Source: Candidatus Parcubacteria bacterium (GTDB lineage: Bacteria; Patescibacteriota; Patescibacteriia; CAIXNZ01). Taken from it: a stretch of 46,960 nt of DNA. Of this stretch, positions 10,890-23,509 are shown in pieces (the stretch's first letter is position 1; every line of letters starts with the position of its first letter). The translations under genes and the position numbers were made by a program. The DNA lies in NCBI GenBank assembly GCA_026395755.1, contig JAPLYC010000073.1, positions 1 through 46,960 on the forward strand, given 5' to 3'. The notes below the pieces were generated by a model. That model had not been told where the DNA came from. It did not search any database and saw nothing but the letters and a program-made list of their open reading frames with translations.

Positions 10890-11019
10890 TATAACACTAG
10901 AGAGTTCCCGCTATAGTTTTATAAACTAAGTTGCAAAATAGTGGGGTTTATTTTCACTTCTTAATTAAATATTATTCTTAATAAAACTCGCCCAACAAGT
11001 GGGAGGCGGGCTATTTTTT

Positions 11020-14000
11020 ATGTCTAGCAAAAAAAATACCATTCAAGTTCAATCAGCGGTTCAAACTAAGTTGGAAAAAAGAAGATTTTTCAGCAAAGAA
11101 CATGAGGCCATGGAAGTGCCTGATTTGGTTGAAGTTCAGAAAAATTCTTACAATTGGTTTATCAGAGAAGGCTTGCGCGAGCTTTTTGATGAAATAACGC
11201 CGATTAAGGATTTTGGCGGACGCAATCTGGAATTAGCGTTTAAAGATTATTATCTGGATGAGCCAAAATTTGATGAAAAAACATCTCGAGCTAAAAACAT
11301 TACTTACGAAGCTTCCTTGCGAGTCAAAGCGGCTTTGGTCAATAAGAAGGATGATATGAAAAAAGAGCAGGAAATTTACCTGGGTGATTTTCCGGTGATG
11401 ACCGACCGCGGTACTTTTATTATCAATGGCATTGAAAGAACGGTTATTTCCCAGATTATCAGATCAGCCGGTGTATTTTTTACATCCAATTATCTTCGAG
11501 GCCACCGCTATTACGGCGCCAAGATCATTCCAAACCGCGGTGCCTGGCTGGAAATAGAAACTGATGCCAATAATATTTTATGGGTTAAAATTGACCGCAA
11601 AAGAAAAGTCGCTTTGACTTCCTTGCTGCGCGCTTTTGGCTATTCCTCTAATGAAGAAATTTTAGCTTTATTTAAGGAGGCTGACAGCAATCTTGGCATT
11701 AAATATATCCAAAATACTTTGACTAAAGATATTGCCAAAAATATGGATGAAGGTTTGATTGAAGTATATAAAAGAATCAGACCGGGCGATATGGCTACGG
11801 CAGATAATGCCAAGTCTTTGATTTATTCTATGTTTTTCAGATTTGAACGTTATGATTTGGGCAAGGTCGGCCGCTACAAAATTAATCAGCGTTTTAATTT
11901 AAATCTGGCAAATGTACCGGATAACAGGATTTTACGCAAAGAAGATTTATTGGAAATTATTAAGGAAATTATCCGCTTGAATATTGCGCAGGTTGATTCT
12001 GACGATGTTGATCATTTGTCCAACCGCCGCATCAGGTCAGTGGGTGAATTGATTCAGAATCGTTTCCGCATCGGTTTGGCTCGTATGGAAAGAATCGTCA
12101 GGGACAAAATGAGCACGGTTGATATTGAATCAATGACTCCCAGCAAATTAGTCAATGCCAAGCCTGTCATGGGCGTGGTCAAAGAATTTTTCATGTCTTC
12201 CCAATTGTCGCAGTTTATGGATCAGGTAAATCCTTTAGCGGAATTGGAACATAAGCGCAGAATTTCTGCCATGGGCCCGGGCGGTTTATCCAGAGAACGA
12301 GCAGGTTTTGAAGTTCGTGACGTGCATACCACTCACTATGGCAGAATTTGTCCGATTTCTACGCCAGAAGGCCCAAATATCGGGTTGGTCGGGCAACTGG
12401 CAAGCTATGCCAAAGTTAATGAATATGGTTTTATAGAAACTCCTTATCGCGTGATAGAAAGAATTGCCCTGGAAGATATTAAGGATCCGGAAACTAATAA
12501 AGTGGCAATTAAAAAAGGACAAAAAGTCCCTAAAGAATTAATTGATAAGTTAAGAGCAAAAAATTTAAATTATAGCGTTAAATCCAGAGTAACTGATGAA
12601 GTTATTTATTTAAATGCTTTGGCAGAAGAAAGGTCAGTTACCACCGCGGCGACTACACCACTTGATGAAAATGGCCATTTTGTTAATGCTAAAGCCGAAG
12701 TCAGAAAATTCGGCAAGCCGGATATTTCTCCGGTAGAACAGCTTGATTATATGGATGTGGCTTCCAATCAGATCGTCAGTATTTCCACTTCTTGCATTCC
12801 ATTCTTGGAACATGATGATGCGGTTAGAGCTTTGATGGGCACCAATATGCAGCGCCAAGCAGTACCTTGCATTCGGCCGGTTCCGCCATTGGTGGGCACA
12901 GGCATGGAAAGTAAGGCGGCTTTATATTCAGGCTATTTAGCTATCAGCAAAGCAGACGGCAAAGTCGTTAATGTTGACGGTAGCGGCATTGAAGTTTTAG
13001 AAGACAAAGGCGATTTGAAATTTTATGATTTAAATAAATTTGAGAGATCTAATGCTTCAACCTGCATTAACCAGCATCCGACAGTCCAGAAAAACGAACG
13101 AGTTAAAAAAGGACAGATAATGTCTGATGGCCCTTCAATTGCGGAAGCGGAATTAGCATTGGGACAGAATGTGCTGGTCGCTTTCATGGCTTGGGGCGGT
13201 TACAATTATGAAGACGCCGTTATTATAAATGAAAGGGTAGTGCAGAAAGATTATTTTACTTCTATTCATATAGAAAATTATCAGGTGGAAGTTCGGGAAA
13301 CAAAGCTGGGGCCTGAAATCGTCACTTCGGATATACCAAATATTGCCGAAGAAAAACTGAAAAATTTAGATGAAAATGGGGTGGTCAGAATCGGCGCCGA
13401 AGTTTCTTCAGGCGATATTTTGGTCGGCAAAATTACTCCCAAAGGTGAAACCGAGCTTTCAGCTGAAGAAAAATTATTGCGTGCCATTTTCGGTGAAAAA
13501 GCCCGAGATGTGCGCGACAGCTCTTTATACCTGGAACATGGCGATCACGGCAAAGTTATTGATATTAAAATTTTTACTCAAGAACACGGTGATAAATTAT
13601 CTCCGGGCGTAACTCAAATGGTTCAGGTGGCAGTAGCTGATTTACGAAAAATCCAGATTGGTGATAAAATCGCCGGCCGTCACGGCAATAAAGGCATTAT
13701 TTCTAATGTTGTGCCTGCCGAGGATATGCCGTTTTTAGCCAATGGTACCCCGATTGATTTTATTTTGAGTCCCTTGGGTGTGATTTCCCGTATGAATTTA
13801 GGACAAATATTAGAAACTCATTTGGGTCTGGCTGTTCATACATTAGGATTTAAAGTAGCCACCCCGGTTTTTTACGGTGTCAGCGAGGAAAAAATTAAAG
13901 AATTGTTAAAGCAAGCCGGTTTTCCGGAAAATGGCAAACTGACATTATATGACGGCCGCACCGGCGATGCTTTTAGCAATAAGGTAACTGTCGGTTATAA

Positions 14001-14388
14001 ATATATTTTGAAACTGAATCATATGGTGGAAGATAAGATTCATCAAAGGTCAATCGGCCCATATTCATTGATTACTCAGCAGCCTTTGGGCGGTAAAGCG
14101 CAATTTGGAGGCCAAAGATTTGGTGAAATGGAAGTCTGGGCTCTGGAAGGTTATGGCGCCGCTCATACTTTGCAGGAAATTTTGACCATTAAATCAGATG
14201 ATGTGCCGGGCCGCGCCAAAGCTTATGAATCTATTATTAAGGGCGAACCGATCAGAAAATTAAATATTCCGGAATCATTTAATGTCTTGGTTCGCGAACT
14301 TAAAGGCCTTTGTTTAGATGTGGAATTATTGGACGGTAAGAATGTGCTTGATGACACAACCAAGGAAGATTCCAAGAAGATCAGGTAA
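11020..14388 (+). CDS. rpoB: RNA polymerase beta subunit
   Basis: GRICPISTPEGPNIG, GDKIAGRHGNKG, GGQRFGEMEVWALE; start set at ATG 11020 rather than GTG 10999. Confidence 0.99.
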   Translation: MSSKKNTIQVQSAVQTKLEKRRFFSKEHEAMEVPDLVEVQKNSYNWFIREGLRELFDEITPIKDFGGRNLELAFKDYYLDEPKFDEKTSRAKNITYEASLRVKAALVNKKDDMKKEQEIYLGDFPVMTDRGTFIINGIERTVISQIIRSAGVFFTSNYLRGHRYYGAKIIPNRGAWLEIETDANNILWVKIDRKRKVALTSLLRAFGYSSNEEILALFKEADSNLGIKYIQNTLTKDIAKNMDEGLIEVYKRIRPGDMATADNAKSLIYSMFFRFERYDLGKVGRYKINQRFNLNLANVPDNRILRKEDLLEIIKEIIRLNIAQVDSDDVDHLSNRRIRSVGELIQNRFRIGLARMERIVRDKMSTVDIESMTPSKLVNAKPVMGVVKEFFMSSQLSQFMDQVNPLAELEHKRRISAMGPGGLSRERAGFEVRDVHTTHYGRICPISTPEGPNIGLVGQLASYAKVNEYGFIETPYRVIERIALEDIKDPETNKVAIKKGQKVPKELIDKLRAKNLNYSVKSRVTDEVIYLNALAEERSVTTAATTPLDENGHFVNAKAEVRKFGKPDISPVEQLDYMDVASNQIVSISTSCIPFLEHDDAVRALMGTNMQRQAVPCIRPVPPLVGTGMESKAALYSGYLAISKADGKVVNVDGSGIEVLEDKGDLKFYDLNKFERSNASTCINQHPTVQKNERVKKGQIMSDGPSIAEAELALGQNVLVAFMAWGGYNYEDAVIINERVVQKDYFTSIHIENYQVEVRETKLGPEIVTSDIPNIAEEKLKNLDENGVVRIGAEVSSGDILVGKITPKGETELSAEEKLLRAIFGEKARDVRDSSLYLEHGDHGKVIDIKIFTQEHGDKLSPGVTQMVQVAVADLRKIQIGDKIAGRHGNKGIISNVVPAEDMPFLANGTPIDFILSPLGVISRMNLGQILETHLGLAVHTLGFKVATPVFYGVSEEKIKELLKQAGFPENGKLTLYDGRTGDAFSNKVTVGYKYILKLNHMVEDKIHQRSIGPYSLITQQPLGGKAQFGGQRFGEMEVWALEGYGAAHTLQEILTIKSDDVPGRAKAYESIIKGEPIRKLNIPESFNVLVRELKGLCLDVELLDGKNVLDDTTKEDSKKIR

Positions 14389-14435: not shown

Positions 14436-17400
14436 ATGATTTTCAATCAAGCCAAGCCATTAGAATTTGACGGCATCAGATTAAAGCTAGCTTCTCCCGA
14501 AGTAATTAGAATCTGGTCGCACGGCGAAGTTACCAAGCCGGAAACGATTAATTATCGGACGCAAAAACCGGAAAAAGACGGCTTATTCTGCGAGAAAATT
14601 TTCGGGCCGTCTAAAGATTGGGAATGCTACTGCGGCAAATATAAAAAGATCAGGTATAAGGGGATTATTTGCGATAAGTGCGGCGTGGAAGTTACTCATT
14701 CCATGGTCAGACGCGAACGCATGGGGCATATTGAATTATGCTCGCCGGTTTCGCACATCTGGTTTTTACGCGGCGTGCCTTCACGCCTAGGTTTAGTTTT
14801 GGATATTTCCGTGCAAAGCCTGGAAAAGGTGATTTATTTTGCCAGCTTCATAATTACTAAAGTTAATCAGGAGCTGAAAGCCCAGGCAATGGAGCAGCTG
14901 AAGGAAGAATACAAAACTAAGAAAAAGCAGATAGAGGCTAATTTTAAAAACCGTGTCAATCAGATTAAAACCAATAAAAGTCTCAAGGAAAAAGAGCAGG
15001 ATAAAAAAATAATTGAATTAAACAAGGAAAGAGATCTGGAAGCAGCGGAATTCGAAAAAGAATATGTTAAAACCGAGACTGATTTAAAGGATCTAAAAAT
15101 AAAAAAAATTATTTCCGAGGATCAATATCAGGATTTGTCTCTTAAATTCGGCCATATTTTTGAAGTGGCCATCGGCGCTGAAGCGGTCAGAAAATTATTG
15201 GAGGTAATTGATCTGGAAAAATTAGTAAAAAGCTTGGACGCGGAATTAGAAGAGGCAATCGGCACCAAAAGAGAAAGAGCTGTTAAACGTATCAAGCTGG
15301 TTAAAAACTTGGTTAAAAATAAAATCAGGCCTGAATGGATGATTTTGAATATGATCCCCGTTATCCCGCCCGATTTAAGGCCAATGGTGCCTTTAGACGG
15401 CGGTCGTTTTGCCACCTCTGATTTAAATGATTTATATCGTCGCGTCATCAATAGAAATAACCGTTTGAAAAAACTGAAGGAATTAAATGCCCCGGAAGTT
15501 ATTATCCGCAATGAAAAAAGAATGCTTCAGGAAGCTGTTGATGCTTTGTTGGATAACAGCGCCAGACACTCAAAAACAACTACGGCTTCTACCGGCCAAA
15601 AAAGACAGTTGAAATCCATTGCTGATATTTTAAAAGGCAAGCAAGGCCGCTTCAGACAGAATTTACTGGGTAAACGTACTGATTATTCAGGCCGCAGCGT
15701 TATTGTCGTCGGTCCGAATTTGAAGTTGCACCAATGCGGTTTGCCCAAGCGCATGGCCTTGGAATTATTTAAGCCGTTTGTCATCAGTCAGCTCATTAAA
15801 CGTGAATTTGTCCATAATATCAGAAGCGCCAATAGGTTTATTGAAAGCAATCGTCCGGAAATCTGGGATATTTTGGAAGAAATAGTTAAAGACGCTCATG
15901 TCTTATTGAATCGCGCTCCGACTTTGCACCGTTTGGGCATCCAAGCTTTTAAGCCGATTTTAATTGAAGGTAAAGCTATTCACTTGCATCCTTTGGTTTG
16001 CGCTGCTTTTAATGCCGATTTTGACGGCGATCAGATGGCTGTTCATGTGCCTTTGACGGAACAAGCTAAAAACGAGGCCAAAGAATTGATGCTATCATCT
16101 AAAAATTTATTAAAGCCGGCAACAGGAAATCCTATCACCACTCCAAGAATGGATATTGTCTGGGGCTGCTATTATATAACGGAATTAAAGAGGTTGCGGG
16201 AAAAACCTCGATCTTTTGGTTCCTTTGAAGAAGCTGTTTTAGCTTATAACTCAAAGATCATTACTGTTTCTGAAGAAATTGAAGCCCGTGATATTTTACC
16301 GGGAAAAAAGAAACCGGAAAGAATTATTACCAATGTCGGCCGCATCTTATTTAACCGTTTATTACCTTCGGAAATAGGATTTTATAATGAACAGATAACC
16401 ACTAAAAATCTGGGTGATTTGATTAAATTTTCCCTGGAAAAAATGGGTAAGGATAGGACGGCCAGATTGCTTGATGACATTAAAGATCTTGGCTTTAAGT
16501 TTTTAACCCTAAGCGGTTATTCCTGGGGTATGGATGATTTGCCGGATTTAGTAGGTAAAAAGGAAATTGTAGATACCGGCGATCTCCAGATTGATGAAGT
16601 TAACGATCAGTTTCAGCAGGGTTTACTGACCAAGAGCGAGCGTCATTCAAAAATTATTGAAATTTGGACAGCAATTAAGGATAAAATCGTGCAGCTGGGC
16701 AAAGATTCATTGAATAAAGAAGGCCCGGTATATTCCATGGTAACTTCAGGGGCTCGCGGTTCCTGGACTCAGGTGACGCAGATGGTCGGGATGAAAGGCT
16801 TAGTGGCCAATCCGGCCGGTGAAATTATTGAACTGCCTGTCAAAGCCAGTTTCAAAGAAGGCTTTGATGTTTTGGAATATTTTATTTCTACTCATGGTTC
16901 CAGAAAAGGCTTATCAGATACTGCTTTAAGAACCGCCAATGCCGGTTATTTAACCCGTCGTTTAGTTGACGTTTCTCAGGACGTGGTAGTTCGTGAGGAA
17001 GATTGTGGCGATAAAAAAGGCATGCTTTATACTAAAAAAGATAGCGATGAAATCGGCGTTAATTTATTGGAGCGCGTCTGGGGCAGGGTTTGTCTGGAAA
17101 AAATTACCGATCCTAAAACAGGTGAAGTTGTCGTTGATAAAGATCAATTGATTACTGAAGCAGTAGTGCGCAAATTACAGCCCTTGAATCTGGAGCAGCT
17201 TACTGTCCGATCAGTTTTAACCTGCAAAATGACCAAAGGCCTTTGCACTAAATGTTATGGCTATGACCTGGGTTATAATGAAATGGTTAAATTGGGCGTA
17301 GCTGTAGGTATTATCGCGGCTCAAAGTATTGGTGAACCAGGCACCCAGCTGACCATGAGAACTTTCCATACTGGCGGTGTGGCCGGCACTGATATCACCC

Positions 17401-18323
17401 AAGGTTTGCCTCGCGTGGAAGAACTTTTTGAAGCTCGTCCGCCCAAACGCAAAGCAATTCTGGCTGAAGAAGACGGCCTAGCCACAATTTCTGATGCGCC
17501 GAAGAAAATTGAAGATGAAAAAGGCCGTGTCTTATTCAGCACTACCCATGGCCAAAAGATATTAAAGATAAAATTTGATGATGTGGAAGAGGACACCTAT
17601 TCTTTTAAAGGCCAATCCCCGACGCTGAAAGTCAAAGAAGGGGATAAGGTTTCTAAAGATGAAATCTTGTTTAAATTAGGCAAAACAGAAATGAAAGTTA
17701 AAAGACCAGGCGTGGTTAAAGTTACTGAAAAAACCGTAAAAGTAATCAGCAACGTTGAAAAGGAAAAAGAATATCTGATCCCGCAGGGCTATCGTTTATG
17801 GATCAATGACGGAGATTTTGTTAAAAAAGGCGATCAATTGACTGAAGGCAGTTTAGATTTACATCAATTATATAAGCTTAAAGGCCGCGATGAAGTCAAG
17901 CGTTATGTGGTTAAAGAAATCCAGTATATTTACGCTTCTCAAGGACAGCGTTTGAATGAAAAGCATATCGAAGTCATTATTAAGCAATTATTCAGCCGTG
18001 TCTTAATTAAAGATGCCGGGGATACCAATTTATTGCCCGGTGAAATCGTGGAAAAAGCTGAGATGGATGAAGCTAATATCGAGATTGATAAAACCGATGG
18101 CAAACACGCTACTTCTGAGGAATTATTTCTGGGCATTACCAAGGTTTCTCTGACCACCCGCAGTTTCTTATCGGCTGCTTCTTTTCAGGAAACTTCCCGT
18201 GTGCTGATTAATGCGGCTTTAACCGGTAAGATTGATAAGCTGGAAGGCTTGAAGGAAAATGTCATTATTGGCCGTTTGATTCCGGCCGGCACAGGTTTTA
18301 AAAGGAAGCCAAAGGAAGAATAG
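14436..18323 (+). CDS. rpoC: RNA polymerase beta' subunit
   Basis: Zn finger CYCGKYK...CDKC, NADFDGDQMAVH catalytic motif, GEPGTQLTMRTFH. Confidence 0.99.
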   Translation: MIFNQAKPLEFDGIRLKLASPEVIRIWSHGEVTKPETINYRTQKPEKDGLFCEKIFGPSKDWECYCGKYKKIRYKGIICDKCGVEVTHSMVRRERMGHIELCSPVSHIWFLRGVPSRLGLVLDISVQSLEKVIYFASFIITKVNQELKAQAMEQLKEEYKTKKKQIEANFKNRVNQIKTNKSLKEKEQDKKIIELNKERDLEAAEFEKEYVKTETDLKDLKIKKIISEDQYQDLSLKFGHIFEVAIGAEAVRKLLEVIDLEKLVKSLDAELEEAIGTKRERAVKRIKLVKNLVKNKIRPEWMILNMIPVIPPDLRPMVPLDGGRFATSDLNDLYRRVINRNNRLKKLKELNAPEVIIRNEKRMLQEAVDALLDNSARHSKTTTASTGQKRQLKSIADILKGKQGRFRQNLLGKRTDYSGRSVIVVGPNLKLHQCGLPKRMALELFKPFVISQLIKREFVHNIRSANRFIESNRPEIWDILEEIVKDAHVLLNRAPTLHRLGIQAFKPILIEGKAIHLHPLVCAAFNADFDGDQMAVHVPLTEQAKNEAKELMLSSKNLLKPATGNPITTPRMDIVWGCYYITELKRLREKPRSFGSFEEAVLAYNSKIITVSEEIEARDILPGKKKPERIITNVGRILFNRLLPSEIGFYNEQITTKNLGDLIKFSLEKMGKDRTARLLDDIKDLGFKFLTLSGYSWGMDDLPDLVGKKEIVDTGDLQIDEVNDQFQQGLLTKSERHSKIIEIWTAIKDKIVQLGKDSLNKEGPVYSMVTSGARGSWTQVTQMVGMKGLVANPAGEIIELPVKASFKEGFDVLEYFISTHGSRKGLSDTALRTANAGYLTRRLVDVSQDVVVREEDCGDKKGMLYTKKDSDEIGVNLLERVWGRVCLEKITDPKTGEVVVDKDQLITEAVVRKLQPLNLEQLTVRSVLTCKMTKGLCTKCYGYDLGYNEMVKLGVAVGIIAAQSIGEPGTQLTMRTFHTGGVAGTDITQGLPRVEELFEARPPKRKAILAEEDGLATISDAPKKIEDEKGRVLFSTTHGQKILKIKFDDVEEDTYSFKGQSPTLKVKEGDKVSKDEILFKLGKTEMKVKRPGVVKVTEKTVKVISNVEKEKEYLIPQGYRLWINDGDFVKKGDQLTEGSLDLHQLYKLKGRDEVKRYVVKEIQYIYASQGQRLNEKHIEVIIKQLFSRVLIKDAGDTNLLPGEIVEKAEMDEANIEIDKTDGKHATSEELFLGITKVSLTTRSFLSAASFQETSRVLINAALTGKIDKLEGLKENVIIGRLIPAGTGFKRKPKEE

Positions 18324-18343
18324 GAAATTGTAAGTTAATATAT

Positions 18344-18379
18344 AAAAAAACACTTCTCAGAAATGAGGGGTGTTTTTTT
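18344..18379 (+). terminator. rpoBC terminator
   Basis: A7-CACTTCTCA-gaaa-TGAGGGGTG-T7. Confidence 0.85.
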
Positions 18380-18383
18380 ATTT

Positions 18384-18470
18384 CGTTTATCGTATTACGG
18401 TTTCGGTTAACGTTTCGACAGACGTATTAAGTGATACGAAACGCCAAACGAAACCGAAGAACGTCTCACG
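18384..18470. repeat. CG-ladder element copy 2 (13/14 CG)
   Basis: Same offsets as copy 1; offset 46 is AG. Confidence 0.9.
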
Positions 18471-18560
18471 AAACAGCTATTTTGGTCAAAACAGACTGAC
18501 AAAATTAGAGTTAATAGATATGAATTTATCTAATTTTAGCCAAGATGTAACCAAGGGGGC

Positions 18561-18654
18561 TTGACAAGTCTCTTTAGATATGATATTATGGCAAATCACG
18601 CTAAAAAAGGGTAGAGATGCTCCTCTTGACAAAATGATTAAAACGTGCTATACT
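18561..18654 (+). promoter_or_regulatory. Two tandem near-consensus sigma70 promoters
   Basis: TTGACA-N17-TATTAT (18561-18589) and TTGACA-N17-TATACT (18626-18654), both with extended TG. Confidence 0.8.
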
Positions 18655-18685
18655 TATAAAACATGAAATTTGAAAATTAAGCGAT

Positions 18686-18940
18686 TTAGTGACCAGCAAT
18701 ATGGGGGTAGTAGTGCATTAGGGTCAGTAGAGTTTTCCGGCCCTGCTAGAAAACTTCTACGCCTGGTGTTTAACTGATAAGGCTCTGTCCTATATCAGTC
18801 GTTCCGCTTTGCGGGACAACACCTCCATATTATTGGTCATTAAGTTCGAGATTCAGACTAAGGGCAATATAGAGTTCCATTCATTTAAATGTACTTTTAA
18901 ACAAAGCGGGACTCCTTGAGCCCTTTGTCGGGATCTTGAA
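18686..18940 (+). ncRNA. Structured leader/ncRNA: ~22-bp closing stem enclosing three hairpins, then a second long stem
   Basis: TTAGTGACCAGCAATATGGGGG pairs with CCTCCATATTATTGGTCATTAA (G-U pairs on +); 18845-18865 pairs with 18920-18940. Confidence 0.6.
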
Positions 18941-18982
18941 AACTTTTATCTGTTCTCAAAACAACAAACAAAAGGAGGGGCA

Positions 18983-19111
18983 ATGAAAGCGTATGTCATG
19001 ATGACTAAAAACAGCATTGTGCGCCTAGTTCCTCTGGGACTGGCGCGGCACTACGAAAGGGTTGGCCTCGGAATGATCGTGGCCTTCCTGATCCATGGTC
19101 AGCTGCACTAG
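18983..19111 (+). CDS. 42-aa small protein MKAYVMMTKNSIVRLVPLGLARHYERVGLGMIVAFLIHGQLH (not in ORF track)
   Basis: AAGGAGGGG SD directly before the ATG; TAG stop at 19109-19111. Confidence 0.55.
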   Translation: MKAYVMMTKNSIVRLVPLGLARHYERVGLGMIVAFLIHGQLH

Positions 19112-19302
19112 GCTGACACCAAATCAAGATTCGCAGCACGAGGGACTTACAAAAGTCCCTACTTCATCTCAAGACGGGATAGTCTCGTGTAGATTATTTT
19201 GTCTTGAGATGAGGTCTATAATGATGATCTTTCAAATTTATTGGTGGAGAAATCCACGCCCTATCAGGGAGAAATTCCTGATATAACCAAAGGAGGACTA
19301 CC

Positions 19303-20148
19303 ATGACTGATCCCAATACCACCCCGGCCACCGACACCCCGACCGAAACCGTGATCGAGCCCAAGGCTGAGGAACAGGTTTACACCTGCGCCTGCTGCGG
19401 ACACGAAGCCACGGCCGAAGACGGCGTGGTCACCGAGCAGGTGAACGGCAAGCCGAAGATCGTCGACGCGACCATGTGGGCCGCGGCCGGCGAAGTCGGA
19501 TCCGAAACCGTGCTCAAGGTCTTCTGCAAGACCTGCGCGACCGAGGGCAAAGAGGACGACGGACAGACGTTCTTCCCGCTGAAGAACGCCCTGGCCTATG
19601 CCGACCGCGTCAAACGGCACTTTCCCAAGCGCGAGCGTTTGCTCGAGCAGGCGAACGAGCCGGAGATGCGGCAGCCGCGTCCCGAGATGTTCTGCAAGCG
19701 GTGCGGAAAGCGCCACGGGCAGATCGATAACTATCGGGGCGGGGTGACCGTCATCCGCAGAGCCTACCGCGTCGACTTCAATCAGAAGCCGATCATCGCG
19801 GAGTTCCTGTGCGGTGAGTGCCTCACGGAGCTTGGGCTCGTGCCCAAGAGGAATTCCGACGGCAGCTTCACGCAGCCCGAGGGACTTTTTCCCCCGTGGA
19901 AGACGCTTCAGATCGCCCTGCATGCGGAGGACAATCGTCTCGATCGGATCGAGAGGGACAAAGCCAACAAGGCACGGCGTGAAGAACAGCGTCAGCGGGA
20001 CAAAGAACTGCGTGAGCGGGCCATGGCTCCCAAGGCCGCCCCGACCACGAAGGTCTTCCAGCGTCCCGTCAGGCACGAACCCCTGGGCAAGGCCGGCACC
20101 GGTTCCATCGGGAAACCCGCCAACCGCAAGGACGGCACTCGCGGCTAA
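19303..20148 (+). CDS. Orphan GC-rich protein with four CxxC pairs (two putative Zn fingers) and a basic/charged C-terminus
   Basis: AAGGAGG SD; CACC, CKTC, CKRC, CGEC; strong GC3 bias. Confidence 0.8.
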   Translation: MTDPNTTPATDTPTETVIEPKAEEQVYTCACCGHEATAEDGVVTEQVNGKPKIVDATMWAAAGEVGSETVLKVFCKTCATEGKEDDGQTFFPLKNALAYADRVKRHFPKRERLLEQANEPEMRQPRPEMFCKRCGKRHGQIDNYRGGVTVIRRAYRVDFNQKPIIAEFLCGECLTELGLVPKRNSDGSFTQPEGLFPPWKTLQIALHAEDNRLDRIERDKANKARREEQRQRDKELRERAMAPKAAPTTKVFQRPVRHEPLGKAGTGSIGKPANRKDGTRG

Positions 20149-20243
20149 CCGGTCGCTCTTTGGAAAAATCTTGGCTAAATGCCAAGTTGGGATAATGGTA
20201 GATATGCTACCAACCTAATCCCGTTAAACAACAGGTTACGAAC

Positions 20244-20759
20244 ATCCCAAATATTTTCAGTTAATTCTGGAATATATTGGGATACTTGGAGAGGATCCAA
20301 TCTGCGAAAGCAATGATGGTCAAAGACCATTCTATTACTTAAGCAGACATCCCGTCGGGTAGAGACATTTACTGTCCTGCCCTACTTTCTGAGACCGTAA
20401 AGCAATTTGCGGTTTGAGAAAGTGAGCCCTTGACAGAATTAATAATTCTTGCTAAGCTTGCAAAGGAATTTTCCCGAGATGCCCCGTTGGCTCTCTGAAA
20501 AGATCTTCGCCTGATGCGGAGTTTGGGCAAATGGCTGCTTTGACAGCCAACCTGGCCCTGAAAAACGAAAGGTTTTGACAACGTTCCTATTATTCCCTGG
20601 GGAATATAGAGAGGAACACATTGGAGAGGATCCAAATCTGTTGCGGCAATAATGGAAGGTTAACAACTATTCCTGCGCCAAAACAGGCAAATCTCCAGGG
20701 GCGAGACCTAGTTTCGCCCAACTTTCTGAGACCGTAAAGCAATTTGCGGTTTGAGAAAG
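20244..20759 (+). ncRNA. Two tandem copies (~337-nt period) of a structured RNA module
   Basis: Identical 39-mer ACTTTCTGAGACCGTAAAGCAATTTGCGGTTTGAGAAAG at 20384-20422 and 20721-20759; TTGGAGAGGATCCAA at 20286 and 20621; sequence-divergent but structurally equivalent hairpins between them. Confidence 0.7.
20430..20458 (+). promoter_or_regulatory. Internal sigma70 promoter between the two RNA modules
   Basis: TTGACA-N17-TAAGCT with extended TG. Confidence 0.65.
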
Positions 20760-22036
20760 ACAAAGGTTAAAAAGTTCATATAACCTTGCCACCTTATCCT
20801 AGAACGGAAAGCTTGATAAAGTAATTAAATGCTGATTCAGCAGAAAAACAAGTTTGCGTTCTTAGATAAGGAAGTATTTTGAAAATATTTTAAAAAGGAG
20901 GACGTGTGAACCGGAAGGCTTTTTTTTGCGGCAAAATCAGGGGACCGCCCCTGAGTAAGTTCGAGGAGACAGGATAAAACTCCCGATCGACGCCAAAGGA
21001 GCCAATATGCGCTGGAAATTCAAGTTGAGCGCGGGGACCTGAGACCCCGAGTACACTCAGGTACTGGTAAAGAGCAATTTTTATCAGTAAGGTAATGTAG
21101 TCGTGTCAGCCTGGATACGTGATCATCGCCCAGCTCGGGCAGATTCGCGGATCTTGACGCGGCGAGGTACTGCGCTCCAAAATCACCGGGAACCATACGG
21201 AGGTACTATGACCTTCCCAAGCGGTTTCACCTAGTTACTTAGCTCACTCACCCCGGGCCGAAGATGCCCTCTGTGAAGCTTCGGACTGTACGCTGCTGCT
21301 TACCGGCATAGGTTTGCCGGACACATCCAGGCAGCAGTCCACGGCTGGTTTGACACACTGGAACCGGGCGCCATGCCCATCGTTCAAACCAACTCACCGC
21401 TTCTCCATACCTCGGAGGACAAACAATGCCTGAATTACGGCTCTTGTCTCGGGGTTCCTGGATCCCCTGAATGCAAAAATAAAAACCAGGGACAGCCTGC
21501 TCGAAGATTTTGAGCAGCCGACAAAGAAGCCAGAACGTTTGGGTTCATAAATCTTTGGACTGTCTGCTCGATAGAGTAGGCCCCAAAGTGACTCGAACGT
21601 TTAGGCGAAAAACACTCCTTGCAGAACTCTAAAAAGGGATTAGACAGTTACGACCGGCCAAGTGCCTAACTAACTAGTCATCCCACACAAGTAAGATAAA
21701 GAGATTCTGGCAAGGAACCGACTTTAATAAAGAAGCACGCATCGCCGGACCCGGCACCGAGTTTTCGGTAGCCTTCCCGGCACGCTTTCAGGCCCACCCG
21801 ACGCCTTACCGTTGCAACGCGAAGTCGTTGACGGCCCCGCCGAACCCGGCACTTGCGCTGACTCCTTGTCGAGCGCTCCGCCGAACCGGCAGTATCCTTA
21901 CGGGTAGCGGCCAGACCAGGGGCCGGGGTGCGAGACGCTACGTTTCGCCCCCGGCCCACGCACTAGATTAATCGAGAAAACAGGAAAAAGAAACAGAGGA
22001 GACTTCTAGCCCTTTCAGTCACCTAAAGAGAAAGGG

Positions 22037-22065
22037 GCGCCAAGTGTAACAGCTTGGCGTTTTTT
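22037..22065 (+). terminator. Terminator closing the structured island
   Basis: GCGCCAAG-loop-CTTGGCGT followed by a T tract. Confidence 0.75.
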
Positions 22066-22070
22066 AATTT

Positions 22071-22157
22071 CGTCACACGATTATCGGTATCGGTTTACGT
22101 TTCGGCTAGCGGTTAACGTACAACGTAACGTTTACCTACACCGTTTAACGACAAACG
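22071..22157. repeat. CG-ladder element copy 3 (13/14 CG)
   Basis: Same offsets; offset 65 is CT. Confidence 0.9.
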
Positions 22158-22195
22158 AAAAAGCCAGCCCTTTGCGAACAAAGAGCTGGCTTTTT
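22158..22195 (-). terminator. HU terminator (bidirectional)
   Basis: A5-GCCAGCCCTTTG-cgaa-CAAAGAGCTGGC-T5. Confidence 0.85.
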
Positions 22196-22218
22196 ATATG
22201 TGGGTAGTAGTTTATAGA

Positions 22219-22515
22219 TTAAGCCGCGGGAGCTTCTTTTTTCTTCAAGGCATCTTTTAAGGCCTTGCCGGATTTAAATTTGGGAATAATAACTTCAGGA
22301 ATGTCGATTTTTTCAGAAGGTTTTTGAGGATTAACGCCTTTGCGCGCGTGTCTGATTTTGGCTGAAAAAGTGCCAAAGCCGGTTAAGACGACTTCTTCGT
22401 TTTTTTGCAAAGATTCAATGATGGAATCCAGCATGGTTTCCAAAACCTCCTCAATCTGTTTTTTTGTTAATTTTGTTTTTGAGGCTACGACCTCAATTAG
22501 AGCGGCTTTGTTCAT
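22219..22515 (-). CDS. hup: DNA-binding protein HU
   Basis: MNKAALIEVVA...LTGFGTFS...ARKGVNPQ...PKFKSGKALKDAL. Confidence 0.96.
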   Translation of the reverse strand: MNKAALIEVVASKTKLTKKQIEEVLETMLDSIIESLQKNEEVVLTGFGTFSAKIRHARKGVNPQKPSEKIDIPEVIIPKFKSGKALKDALKKKEAPAA

Positions 22516-22576
22516 ATGGGTTGGTAAGGTTAGATTAAGTTATATAAGGTTATATTAGGTTTTATAAGGTTGCTCT

Positions 22577-22660
22577 GAAATACGGATTATTTTCACTGAT
22601 TCCACGGATACATTTTAAATTATTAAAATCTGTGTTATCCGTGAACAAAATCCGTGGTTC
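22577..22660. repeat. ACGGAT/ATCCGT ~9-nt-periodic palindromic element in the HU leader
   Basis: GAAATACGGATT..TCACTGATTCCACGGAT ... ATCTGTGTTATCCGTGA..AATCCGTGGTTC. Confidence 0.7.
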
Positions 22661-22705
22661 TTTTTTAGCCAATATTACCTTAATTACATTATATACCCTA
22701 ATACT

Positions 22706-23509
22706 TTAGATTTCAACATCTATCCACACCCTCTCGATTTTGACGGCTTTTTGGGTTTTGGTATCAATTTCCAGATAAACGCCGTTAATTTGGCAGATTC
22801 CACTTTCCGGAATCTCTCCTGGGTCATTAACCTGGCTTAAAAAGTTTTTGATAATGATTCTTTTATCCAAACCAATCACAGAATTTTTAGCTCCGGTCAT
22901 GCCAACATCGGAAATATAAGCTGTGCCTTGTTCTAATATTTGGTCATCTGCAGTCTGCACATGCGTATGACTGCCAATAAAGGCGGAAATCCGGCCGTCC
23001 AGATAAAAGCCCAAAGCTCTTTTTTCGCTGGTAGCTTCGGCGTGGAAATCAACAATAATAGCGGCTAAATTCTCATGCTTATGTTTCTCAAGGATTTTAT
23101 CAACGCAGCGAAACGGGTCATCAAAATCTTCCCGAAAAAAGACGCGGCCGACTAAATTGATAATTAAAATTGATTTTAGGCCAACTTGAACCACTTTATC
23201 GCCGCTACCCGGCGTGTCCTCGGGGTAATTGGCCGGTCTAACCAGGGGAAAGTCCTTTTTACTCAGCAGAATATAGGCGTCTTTTTTATCCCAGACGTGA
23301 TTGCCGGAGGTGAAAAAATCAATGCCTGCTGCCATCATTTCCTGTGTGGTTGTTTCGGTCAGGCCTTTGCCATGAGACAGATTTTCACCATTGGCAATTA
23401 CCAAATCAGGCTCATACTTTTTCTTGAGCTTGGGCAGACCGGCAATTACAGCCTGGCGGCCGATTTTGCCAAAGATGTCGCCGAGGAATAATATTTTGAG
23501 GTTGGACAT
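22706..23509 (-). CDS. ymdB: YmdB-like (TIGR00282) metallophosphoesterase
   Basis: ILFLGDIFGKIGR, NGEN, TSGNHVWD, RPANYP, DFHAEATSEK, GSHTHVQTAD. Confidence 0.95.
   Translation of the reverse strand: MSNLKILFLGDIFGKIGRQAVIAGLPKLKKKYEPDLVIANGENLSHGKGLTETTTQEMMAAGIDFFTSGNHVWDKKDAYILLSKKDFPLVRPANYPEDTPGSGDKVVQVGLKSILIINLVGRVFFREDFDDPFRCVDKILEKHKHENLAAIIVDFHAEATSEKRALGFYLDGRISAFIGSHTHVQTADDQILEQGTAYISDVGMTGAKNSVIGLDKRIIIKNFLSQVNDPGEIPESGICQINGVYLEIDTKTQKAVKIERVWIDVEI

Follow-up and report, generated by a model that had tools for sequence, protein, structure and literature searches.

A 46,960-bp contig of a Candidatus Parcubacteria bacterium (JAPLYC010000073.1, assembly GCA_026395755.1), analysed in its whole length and referred to here as the window, carries two copies of a structured RNA element in a GC-rich stretch downstream of the RNA polymerase gene rpoC. 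The genome to which the window belongs (G000) has a size of 1.46 Mb and a GC content of ~40%. The element is best explained as belonging to a new family of structured RNAs that acts within the sense-strand transcript of a conserved polycistronic operon of high GC content. Comparison among relatives confirmed that it is real and conserved and supported its reading as a functional structured RNA, with stems that change in sequence yet keep their pairing. Its core consists of two consecutive hairpins, P4 and P5, and this module may constitute a common 3′ handle between cistrons, serving in processing, in stability, or as a protein-binding site, a role that we propose tentatively, with a probability of roughly 0.4.

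Structure and covariation of the RNA element

The two window copies share a direct repeat of 44 nt (98% identical; 20379–20422 vs. 20716–20759) at a spacing of 337 nt, within which a run of 39 nt is identical. We calculate that ~4 kb of random sequence would contain an exact 39-mer repeat about 1e-17 times. The 15-mer TTGGAGAGGATCCAA was likewise present in both copies, at 20286 and 20621 (100% identical, spacing 335 nt). Alignment of copy 1 with copy 2 showed a shared order of elements, and their minimum free energy (MFE) structures had the same architecture. An earlier sequence-only reading of this DNA had proposed two copies about 337 nt apart, each with the same five elements in the same order, all of which were recovered in place. 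The copies themselves proved longer than it had assumed: their true starts lie ~80 nt further 5′ (20163 and 20497) and add two covarying hairpins, hp0 and hp1, ahead of P1, the mini-hairpin, P3, P4, and P5 (Table 1). The terminal hairpin had been described as 39 nt with 17 bp. The identical 39-nt run was indeed found, but P5 of the window copies comprises 16 standard pairs, two of them G-U, and one G-G mismatch. The sequence UUGGAGAGGAUCCAA was invariant and can either form its own hairpin or pair alternatively with a pyrimidine tract (AUCCC or UCUCC) just 5′ of P4. Pairwise identity was 0.71 between copy 1 and copy 1 of the sister species G001, 0.80 between the second copies of the two species, and 0.66 between the two window copies. 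Since the window copies are less alike than each is to its G001 counterpart, the duplication is older than the split of the two species.

Both copies were predicted to fold far more stably than shuffled sequences, with an MFE of −73.7 kcal/mol (z −8.82) for copy 1 and −68.8 kcal/mol (z −6.09) for copy 2, and in either case none of 200 shuffles was equally stable. RNAalifold analysis of the four copies of the two species (G000 and G001) indicated compensatory change in 15 of 64 predicted pairs. In an alignment of 12 copies, 91.1% of cells were paired and 32 of 43 pairs had changed on both sides; with 16 copies from 11 genomes, the values were 90.0% and 30 of 36, respectively, the share of paired cells being inflated in these alignments by their having been fitted to the model structure. 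None of 500 shuffles of the 16-copy alignment reached the observed values, and sliding the partners against each other lowered the paired share to 34–51%. The single-sequence folds agreed with these slid controls in supporting a paired structure. The notion of a functional RNA with diverged but still paired stems is thus supported by the pair counts and by their controls.

Across the family, P4 is a GC-rich hairpin of 9–14 bp in which pairing was always kept while the sequence was almost free. It is joined by 1–4 unpaired bases to P5, which has a lower stem of 5–6 bp, a 1x1 purine mismatch, an upper stem of 10 bp, and a loop that is mostly GNRA. The sequence of the upper stem is conserved as AAGACCRUAAA ... 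UUUGYGGUUUU. Promoters, open reading frames (ORFs), terminator, and RNA modules are all on the + strand. Two positions of P5 were G-U in 10 and 11 of the 16 copies, and the pair tally amounted to 48 G-U vs. 28 A-C. A G-U position on the sense strand corresponds to A-C on the opposite strand. The element likely acts as a sense RNA, judging from these directions and pair counts.

Distribution and placement of the module

Three covariance models were used: R1 for the 3′ domain, R2 rebuilt from 12 copies, and R3 for the 5′ domain. A blastn search against 60 relatives recovered the pair of copies only in G001, a member of the same genus (2 of 61 genomes counting G000), which carries the whole 3.6-kb GC-rich stretch. 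With R1, 9 of 14 family genomes matched at E ≤ 0.001, two of these matches (G012:C33 and G003:C10) being judged doubtful. R2 matched 11 of 17 genomes of the order, all of them in the same family (f1), and none of the three genomes of family f2 (66–85% complete). In a sample of the class, 5 of 151 genomes matched R2 at E ≤ 1e-4, including two outside the family that were looked at for GC content only. G002 has a diverged copy (23.9 bits), and in G003 and G009 the 5′ part of the operon lies at contig ends. A degenerate P5 pattern retrieved four metagenome loci, all four of which were confirmed with R2. Taken over the covariance models, the P4–P5 core was found in 12 of 14 family genomes and in these four metagenome loci, and the element is essentially confined to one family of Patescibacteria. 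Homologs with compensatory changes were obtained by the covariance-model search that the sequence-only reading had suggested. R3 matched only the four copies of G000 and G001; therefore, hp0, hp1, and P1 are not family-wide.

Within G000, the module had two strong matches and two weak ones (G000:C84:434-528 with 37 bits and G000:C104:38200-38380 with 32 bits) and no others, and the 12-mer of the P5 apex occurred exactly only in the two window copies. The weak match on C84 reaches into the 3′ end of an ORF of 134 aa, and its GC hairpin precedes a run of six U's, resembling a terminator. No exact match to the 38 nt of P5 was found in the genome-contig collection. The pattern TTGGAGAGGATCCAAN{1,2}CTG gave 39 loci in that collection, approximately the chance expectation by our own arithmetic, of which only the G001 record was genuine, the others scoring ~12–19 bits with R1; in the viral-contig collection the pattern had no loci.

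The first copy had its P5 end 82–350 nt past the stop of the large ORF in 17 of 17 GC-rich islands or parts of islands examined, and each island held one to four copies. A Shine-Dalgarno sequence with a start codon followed 11–107 nt downstream of 21 of 26 copies. The metagenome locus L090 has the order ORF, copy, ORF, copy, copy, copy. In G001, an ORF of 46 aa with a ribosome-binding site lies between its two copies. Each of the window copies starts with GCTCT(C/T)T(G)..AAARATCTT, a sequence that in G001 forms the end of this 46-aa ORF. Because G001 keeps the ORF and the window keeps its last bases, the apparent tandem duplication reflects a single module for every cistron, the middle cistron having disappeared from the window.

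The sequence-only reading had also placed a consensus promoter at 20430, from which copy 2 might be transcribed separately. The −35 box is perfect and the spacer has 17 nt, but the −10 box, TAAGCT, matches at only three of six positions, is preceded by TG, and was not listed by the consensus scan. G007, which belongs to another genus, has the arrangement TTGACA-N17-TAAGCT with TGC downstream of its only copy, and the sister genome G001 lacks it. That copy 2 may be transcribed on its own is plausible.

No known RNA class accounted for the element. Rfam 15 gave no match in the whole window at the gathering score, only unrelated weak rows at E up to 10 in the region 18300–22800, and no recurrent family on eight related loci. 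In the text covered by a full-text literature search and a term look-up in 2026 preprints, no description of the element was found. A known riboswitch or leader did not fit, as no aptamer class was matched in the Rfam searches. An intrinsic terminator did not fit either: no + strand terminator-like site was found at P4 or P5 (20357–20430 or 20699–20770), and within the copies the scan listed a single such site, at the apical P3 hairpin (20315–20331). P5 is followed by GUGAGCCC and ACAAAGG, and in several of the 16 copies P4 precedes a tract that is not rich in U, such as CAUCCACUC, CGCCUACCC, or CUCUCACCC. The matches in G000 likewise did not fit a dispersed element of the repetitive extragenic palindromic (REP) type. 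A CsrA sponge was considered for the GGA in the loop of the mini-hairpin and rejected, CsrA (PF02599) not having been found in G000, which is 99% complete. The RNAs of type III toxin-antitoxin systems are tandem repeats of ~36 nt upstream of an endoribonuclease toxin gene; here, the repeat unit is ~335 nt and lies downstream of ORFs. Likenesses to domain V of group II introns, the sarcin-ricin loop (shared GAGAGGA), and the HK022 put RNAs had no supporting result and are not claimed.

The operon, its proteins, and its surroundings

The operon occupies a GC-rich stretch at 18478–22065 (3.6 kb, 47–58% GC) between rpoC and the HU gene and consists mostly of conserved non-coding blocks and micro-ORFs, the 281-aa ORF being the sole one of any size (Table 1). 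It was found at the same syntenic site in most family genomes and was GC-rich in all of those. In the loci examined, its neighbours were rpoC at one end and the genes for HU, YmdB, and RNase Y at the opposite end.

Table 1. Features of the window and the evidence on which each was assigned.
Feature	Position	Strand	Basis and remarks
rpoB	10999–14388		Upstream of operon; Pfam
rpoC	14436–18323		Upstream of operon; Pfam
Two near-consensus sigma-70 promoter-like sites	18561–18654	+	TTGACA-17-TATTAT and TTGACA-17-TATACT, both with TG; 11/12 matches each; kept in G001
Leader RNA-A, non-coding	18661–18945	+	Right after promoter pair; sequence comparison
First cistron, 42-aa ORF	18983–19111	+	C-terminal half conserved as protein in G001
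Module 0	19142–19214	+	GC hairpin 19142–19159, then long hairpin 19162–19214
Main ORF, 281 aa, type A	19303–20148	+	Four CxxC motifs; translation, protein searches
RNA copy 1 (~260 nt)	20163–20424	+	Repeat search, folding, alignment
RNA copy 2 (~260 nt)	20497–20761	+	Repeat search, folding, alignment
hp0	20170–20186 (copy 1); 20505–20521 (copy 2)	+	
hp1	20189–20222 (copy 1); 20525–20558 (copy 2)	+	
P1	20244–20283 (copy 1); 20583–20617 (copy 2)	+	
Mini-hairpin	20286–20300 (copy 1); 20621–20635 (copy 2)	+	
P3	20301–20347 (copy 1); 20637–20687 (copy 2)	+	
P4	20357–20382 (copy 1); 20699–20719 (copy 2)	+	
P5	20385–20422 (copy 1); 20722–20759 (copy 2)	+	
Internal promoter-like site	20430–20458	+	TTGACA, 17-nt spacer, TGC-TAAGCT; read from sequence; unlisted by consensus scan
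Remnant of lost small cistron	20459–20496	+	Only ...GGCTCTCTGA end left; 46-aa ORF of G001 in same place
Long hairpin with enlarged apex	20792–20871	+	P5-like base UUAUCCUAGAACG ... CGUUCUUAGAUAA; 76/80 identical to G001
Micro-ORF MRWKFKLSAGT	21007–21042	+	Behind AAGGAG; read from sequence; MRWKLKLTAGT in G001
Micro-ORF MTFPSGFT	21208–21234	+	Behind GGAGG; read from sequence, relatives compared
Terminator-like hairpin and T-run, operon end	22036–22065	+	Read from sequence; kept in G001; convergent with HU gene
HU-like gene, 98 aa	22219–22515	-	Own reading of ORF
YmdB, RNase Y	Downstream of operon	-	Pfam

RNA-A is closed by an 18-bp long-range helix, read from the sequence, in which GACCAGCAATATGGGGGT pairs with ACCTCCATATTATTGGTC around a core of several hairpins. 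Its part 18695–18850 is ~95% identical to G001, above the conservation of the adjoining protein gene, and identity to five other family genomes was 67–71%; the leader at 18560–18945 is kept across genera. No Rfam match was obtained for RNA-A. Module 0 lies between the first cistron and the main ORF, and its long hairpin has a P5-like base (UCU.AAGAC ... GUCUU.AGA). With an identity of 90–94% to five other genera, the segment 19156–19214 is conserved more strongly than any other part of the operon, and it precedes the main ORF whatever the protein family of that ORF; G002 has several copies, each ahead of an ORF with a Shine-Dalgarno sequence. A scan with R2 with filters off gave 14 bits (E 0.02) for 19085–19213, behind the first small ORF, and 8.1 bits (E 0.36) for 20794–20869, after copy 2, both on the sense strand. 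Kinship of Module 0 to P4–P5 stays below significance, as does that of the hairpin at 20792–20871 to P5, and both are regarded as leads rather than findings. Both micro-ORFs, MRWKFKLSAGT and MTFPSGFT, lie behind strong ribosome-binding sites. The micro-ORF MTFPSGFT has counterparts in G001 (MTFHSGFT), G007 (MFPSGFQ), G010 (MSLYLSGFT), and G006 (..FFPSGFT..). Since its peptide (F-P-S-G-F) is kept in four other genomes with synonymous codon changes, it is probably translated, and it could be a leader or arrest peptide.

The slot of the large ORF is filled differently among relatives. A type A (zinc-ribbon) ORF was found in G000, G001, G002, G008, and G012 and a type B ORF in G004, G005, G006, G007, G010, G011, and G013, and metagenome loci had additional types. 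In L052, L053, L054, L056, L068–L071, L090, and L091, this slot, with conserved RNA elements on either side, is taken by ORF families that are unrelated to one another. Even within one genus (g4), G005 has type B and G012 type A, and L090 pairs type B with a further zinc ORF. Proteins of type A and type B, the latter beta-rich, have basic tails. Searches of the operon ORFs against Pfam and PHROGs gave nothing significant (RIG-I_C-RD, E 0.35, and SelR, E 0.067, both failing every threshold), and none of the slot families had a Pfam match. The AlphaFold models of type A and type B had pLDDT values of 65.8 and 72.3, respectively; Foldseek found no match to them in the PDB at E ≤ 0.001, a wide structure search (VIA) gave best Z values of 5.0 and 4.8 for the two models, below the meaningful level, and the Atlas yielded no usable lead. 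The 281-aa ORF had no relatives in the genome-contig or viral-contig collections, and only three proteins were found for it among 5.8 billion. The sole other relative of this protein, P0003, lies on a contig of 3558 bp, about the length of the whole operon.

An assembly chimera was excluded, as contigs of two other samples bridge 17889–18586, 21702–22527, and 22008–22674 and thereby span the two borders of the GC-rich stretch; in runs X5 and X6, some parts of it were uncovered. The idea of the island as a mobile element was rejected because the locus is syntenic across genera and has no recombinase. The flanks of the operon (18381–18480 and 22066–22157) consist of low-complexity ACG/CGT words, those of G001 being AAGT-rich instead. 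Two samples each contain one contig that links 18434 with 22115 across opposite strands (side 37 nt), a weak hint of an inversion or of palindromic flanks. Just upstream of the start of the HU gene (22525–22564), three words resembling TAAGGTTAKATT occur in 10-bp phase and may represent a phased A/T-rich promoter or bending region. An antisense ORF of 270 aa (19264–20076, − strand) overlaps the 281-aa gene, and similar long antisense frames occur in the GC-rich ORFs of relatives; it is taken as a by-product of GC-rich coding sequence rather than a gene. ARAGORN found no tRNA or tmRNA.

Proposed role and alternatives

With one module behind each cistron, every cistron segment would acquire the same 3′ end. 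The stable double hairpin would mark either the cut point of the polycistronic RNA or a stop for 3′ exonucleases, and the conserved P5 apex could be the recognition site of a putative protein. In the genus of the window, the module has gained a 5′ domain (hp0, hp1, P1, and a long P3) and so become a domain of ~260 nt, and copy 2 might additionally be transcribed from a promoter of its own, giving a free RNA of ~290 nt. The location of the modules, between stops and the next starts in an operon bracketed by one promoter region and one terminator, is that of intercistronic hairpins, and we infer co-transcription. Mismatched hairpins between cistrons, 3′ of stops and ahead of the next ribosome-binding site, are likewise found at the RNase III sites of the early region of phage T7 and in the REP elements and bacterial interspersed mosaic elements (BIME) of enterobacteria. 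Unlike the T7 sites and REP, the module consists of two hairpins, its apex is strongly conserved, and an extra 180-nt structured domain is present in this genus. It also differs from REP in being essentially restricted to one operon rather than dispersed, and its cleavage or protection is presumed.

Several observations count against such a handle. Copy 1 of the window has no remaining downstream cistron, yet it is intact. The weaker P4–P5-like matches elsewhere in G000 lie outside the operon, and the element is thus not strictly tied to it. To the inflated pairing shares mentioned above comes a weak strand test by folding energy, in which the + strand was the more stable one for only 10 of the 16 copies (mean difference −3.1 kcal/mol). 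None of the 14 sequencing runs listed was an RNA run containing the sequence, and transcription, processing, and 3′ ends are presumed. Finally, a plain stabiliser needs neither a conserved P5 apex nor the 180-nt elaboration of this genus, and more than protection may therefore be at work.

The last point bears on a possible but unlikely alternative, a free-standing trans-acting RNA that would be released from the operon and form a ribonucleoprotein with the operon-encoded type A or type B protein, copy 2 being made from its own promoter. A length of ~260 nt with seven helices exceeds the needs of a stabiliser, the invariant 15-mer and P5 apex suggest a specific partner, and the adjoining ORFs have no assigned function. 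The promoter-like site ahead of copy 2 recurs in G007, but it is missing in the sister species, and the 5′ domain occurs only in two genomes of one genus. The core lies behind at least two unrelated ORF families and tiny ORFs, which argues that it is not tied to one protein, and no fold evidence for RNA binding was obtained for type A or type B. OmrA/OmrB, PrrF1/PrrF2, and Qrr are likewise encoded by neighbouring duplicate genes whose ends are identical and whose middle parts have diverged; these are seed-pairing small RNAs of 80–150 nt with terminators, whereas the module has 260 nt, is highly structured, lacks a U-tail, and follows the cistrons in its copy number.

We consider it improbable that each copy is a cis-regulatory leader, riboswitch-like or protein-responsive, governing the small cistron that follows it. 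The Shine-Dalgarno sequences and starts behind most copies would fit such a leader, and the alternative pairing of UUGGAGAGGAUCCAA would be a possible switch. The distance to the next start is highly variable, however, copy 1 of the window has no downstream ORF, and the family-wide core consists of two plain hairpins with no evident ligand pocket. As to an expression platform, P5 has no terminator-like site, and the Shine-Dalgarno sites that follow 21 of 26 copies, at 11–107 nt, are not consistently or clearly sequestered. Two similar structured domains in series are known from tandem riboswitches (glycine and others; PMC9481103), but the module matches no known aptamer class and its copies are parted by a cistron or a promoter.

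A wider and still more doubtful proposal sees P4–P5 as an address tag behind each cistron of a swappable cassette operon, read by a dedicated factor, in what would be an integrase-less, hairpin-delimited cassette system. The factor, perhaps an operon-encoded protein without a recognisable fold, would sort, package, or process the tagged RNAs, and the same hairpins would be handles for exchanging unrelated ORFs between lineages. Such a system would be specific to an ultra-small symbiotic lineage and would have high GC, a very strong promoter, and a place beside rpoBC.

It is very unlikely that the hairpins act at the DNA level as attC-like recombination sites that exchange ORFs behind a fixed strong promoter. 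As in integron attC arrays, one structured site lies at the 3′ end of each ORF, a strong promoter pair heads the array, and ORF content varies among relatives while the flanking RNA elements stay, as the two members of genus g4 illustrate; the combination of type B with a further zinc ORF in L090 points the same way. Against this, the operon has no recombinase or any Pfam-recognisable gene, and no integrase or attI was recognised in or beside it, the rest of the genome not having been searched for one. The operon keeps one syntenic place, its divergence is like that of the flanking genes, and its G-U positions are conserved on the sense strand. The core words of attC are RYYYAAC and GTTRRRY; they were not seen in a comparison made by eye.

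The guide or scaffold RNA array suggested by the sequence-only reading, with conserved 3′ hairpins as handles flanking variable upstream guides, is largely refuted: although such tandem arrays of repeated RNA units occur in parasitic bacteria of the same radiation (TIGR, tandem interspaced guide RNA; PMC12045711), the variable parts are base-paired, covarying helices, their best complementarity to the own genome was 14 nt at E 1.1 with no match in 50,697 phage records, no effector-like protein was found among the operon ORFs or neighbours, and the irregular period of 130–440 nt, without spacers, is set by the cistrons, as opposed to the periods of 5, 18, or 60–79 nt and single-stranded spacers of known guide arrays, CRISPR included, as reported in 10.64898/2026.10.21.760802.

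The remaining probability belongs to roles that we have not thought of. The intercistronic handle that we favour resembles OLE, GOLLD, ROOL, and raiA in its GC-rich covarying structure, unassigned role, and narrow phylogenetic range, and differs from them in matching none of these Rfam families and in being modular and repeated within an mRNA.

Bacteria of the candidate phyla have tiny genomes with little to spare. One family nonetheless keeps a GC-rich, strongly promoted operon of 2–4 kb beside its RNA polymerase genes, made up largely of structured RNA, micro-ORFs, and proteins without a recognisable fold, and the module is its repeating unit. The element represents a novel RNA family whose covariation is unusually clear and whose placement, one module for each cistron, is directly testable. 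Identifying the partner of the module and the way in which it affects the transcript would give access to the function of the operon as a whole and would also reveal whether unrelated genes change places between the conserved RNA handles. Even as a mere stabiliser, the module would offer a clean case, found in nature, of 3′ handles used in modular fashion along a polycistronic mRNA.

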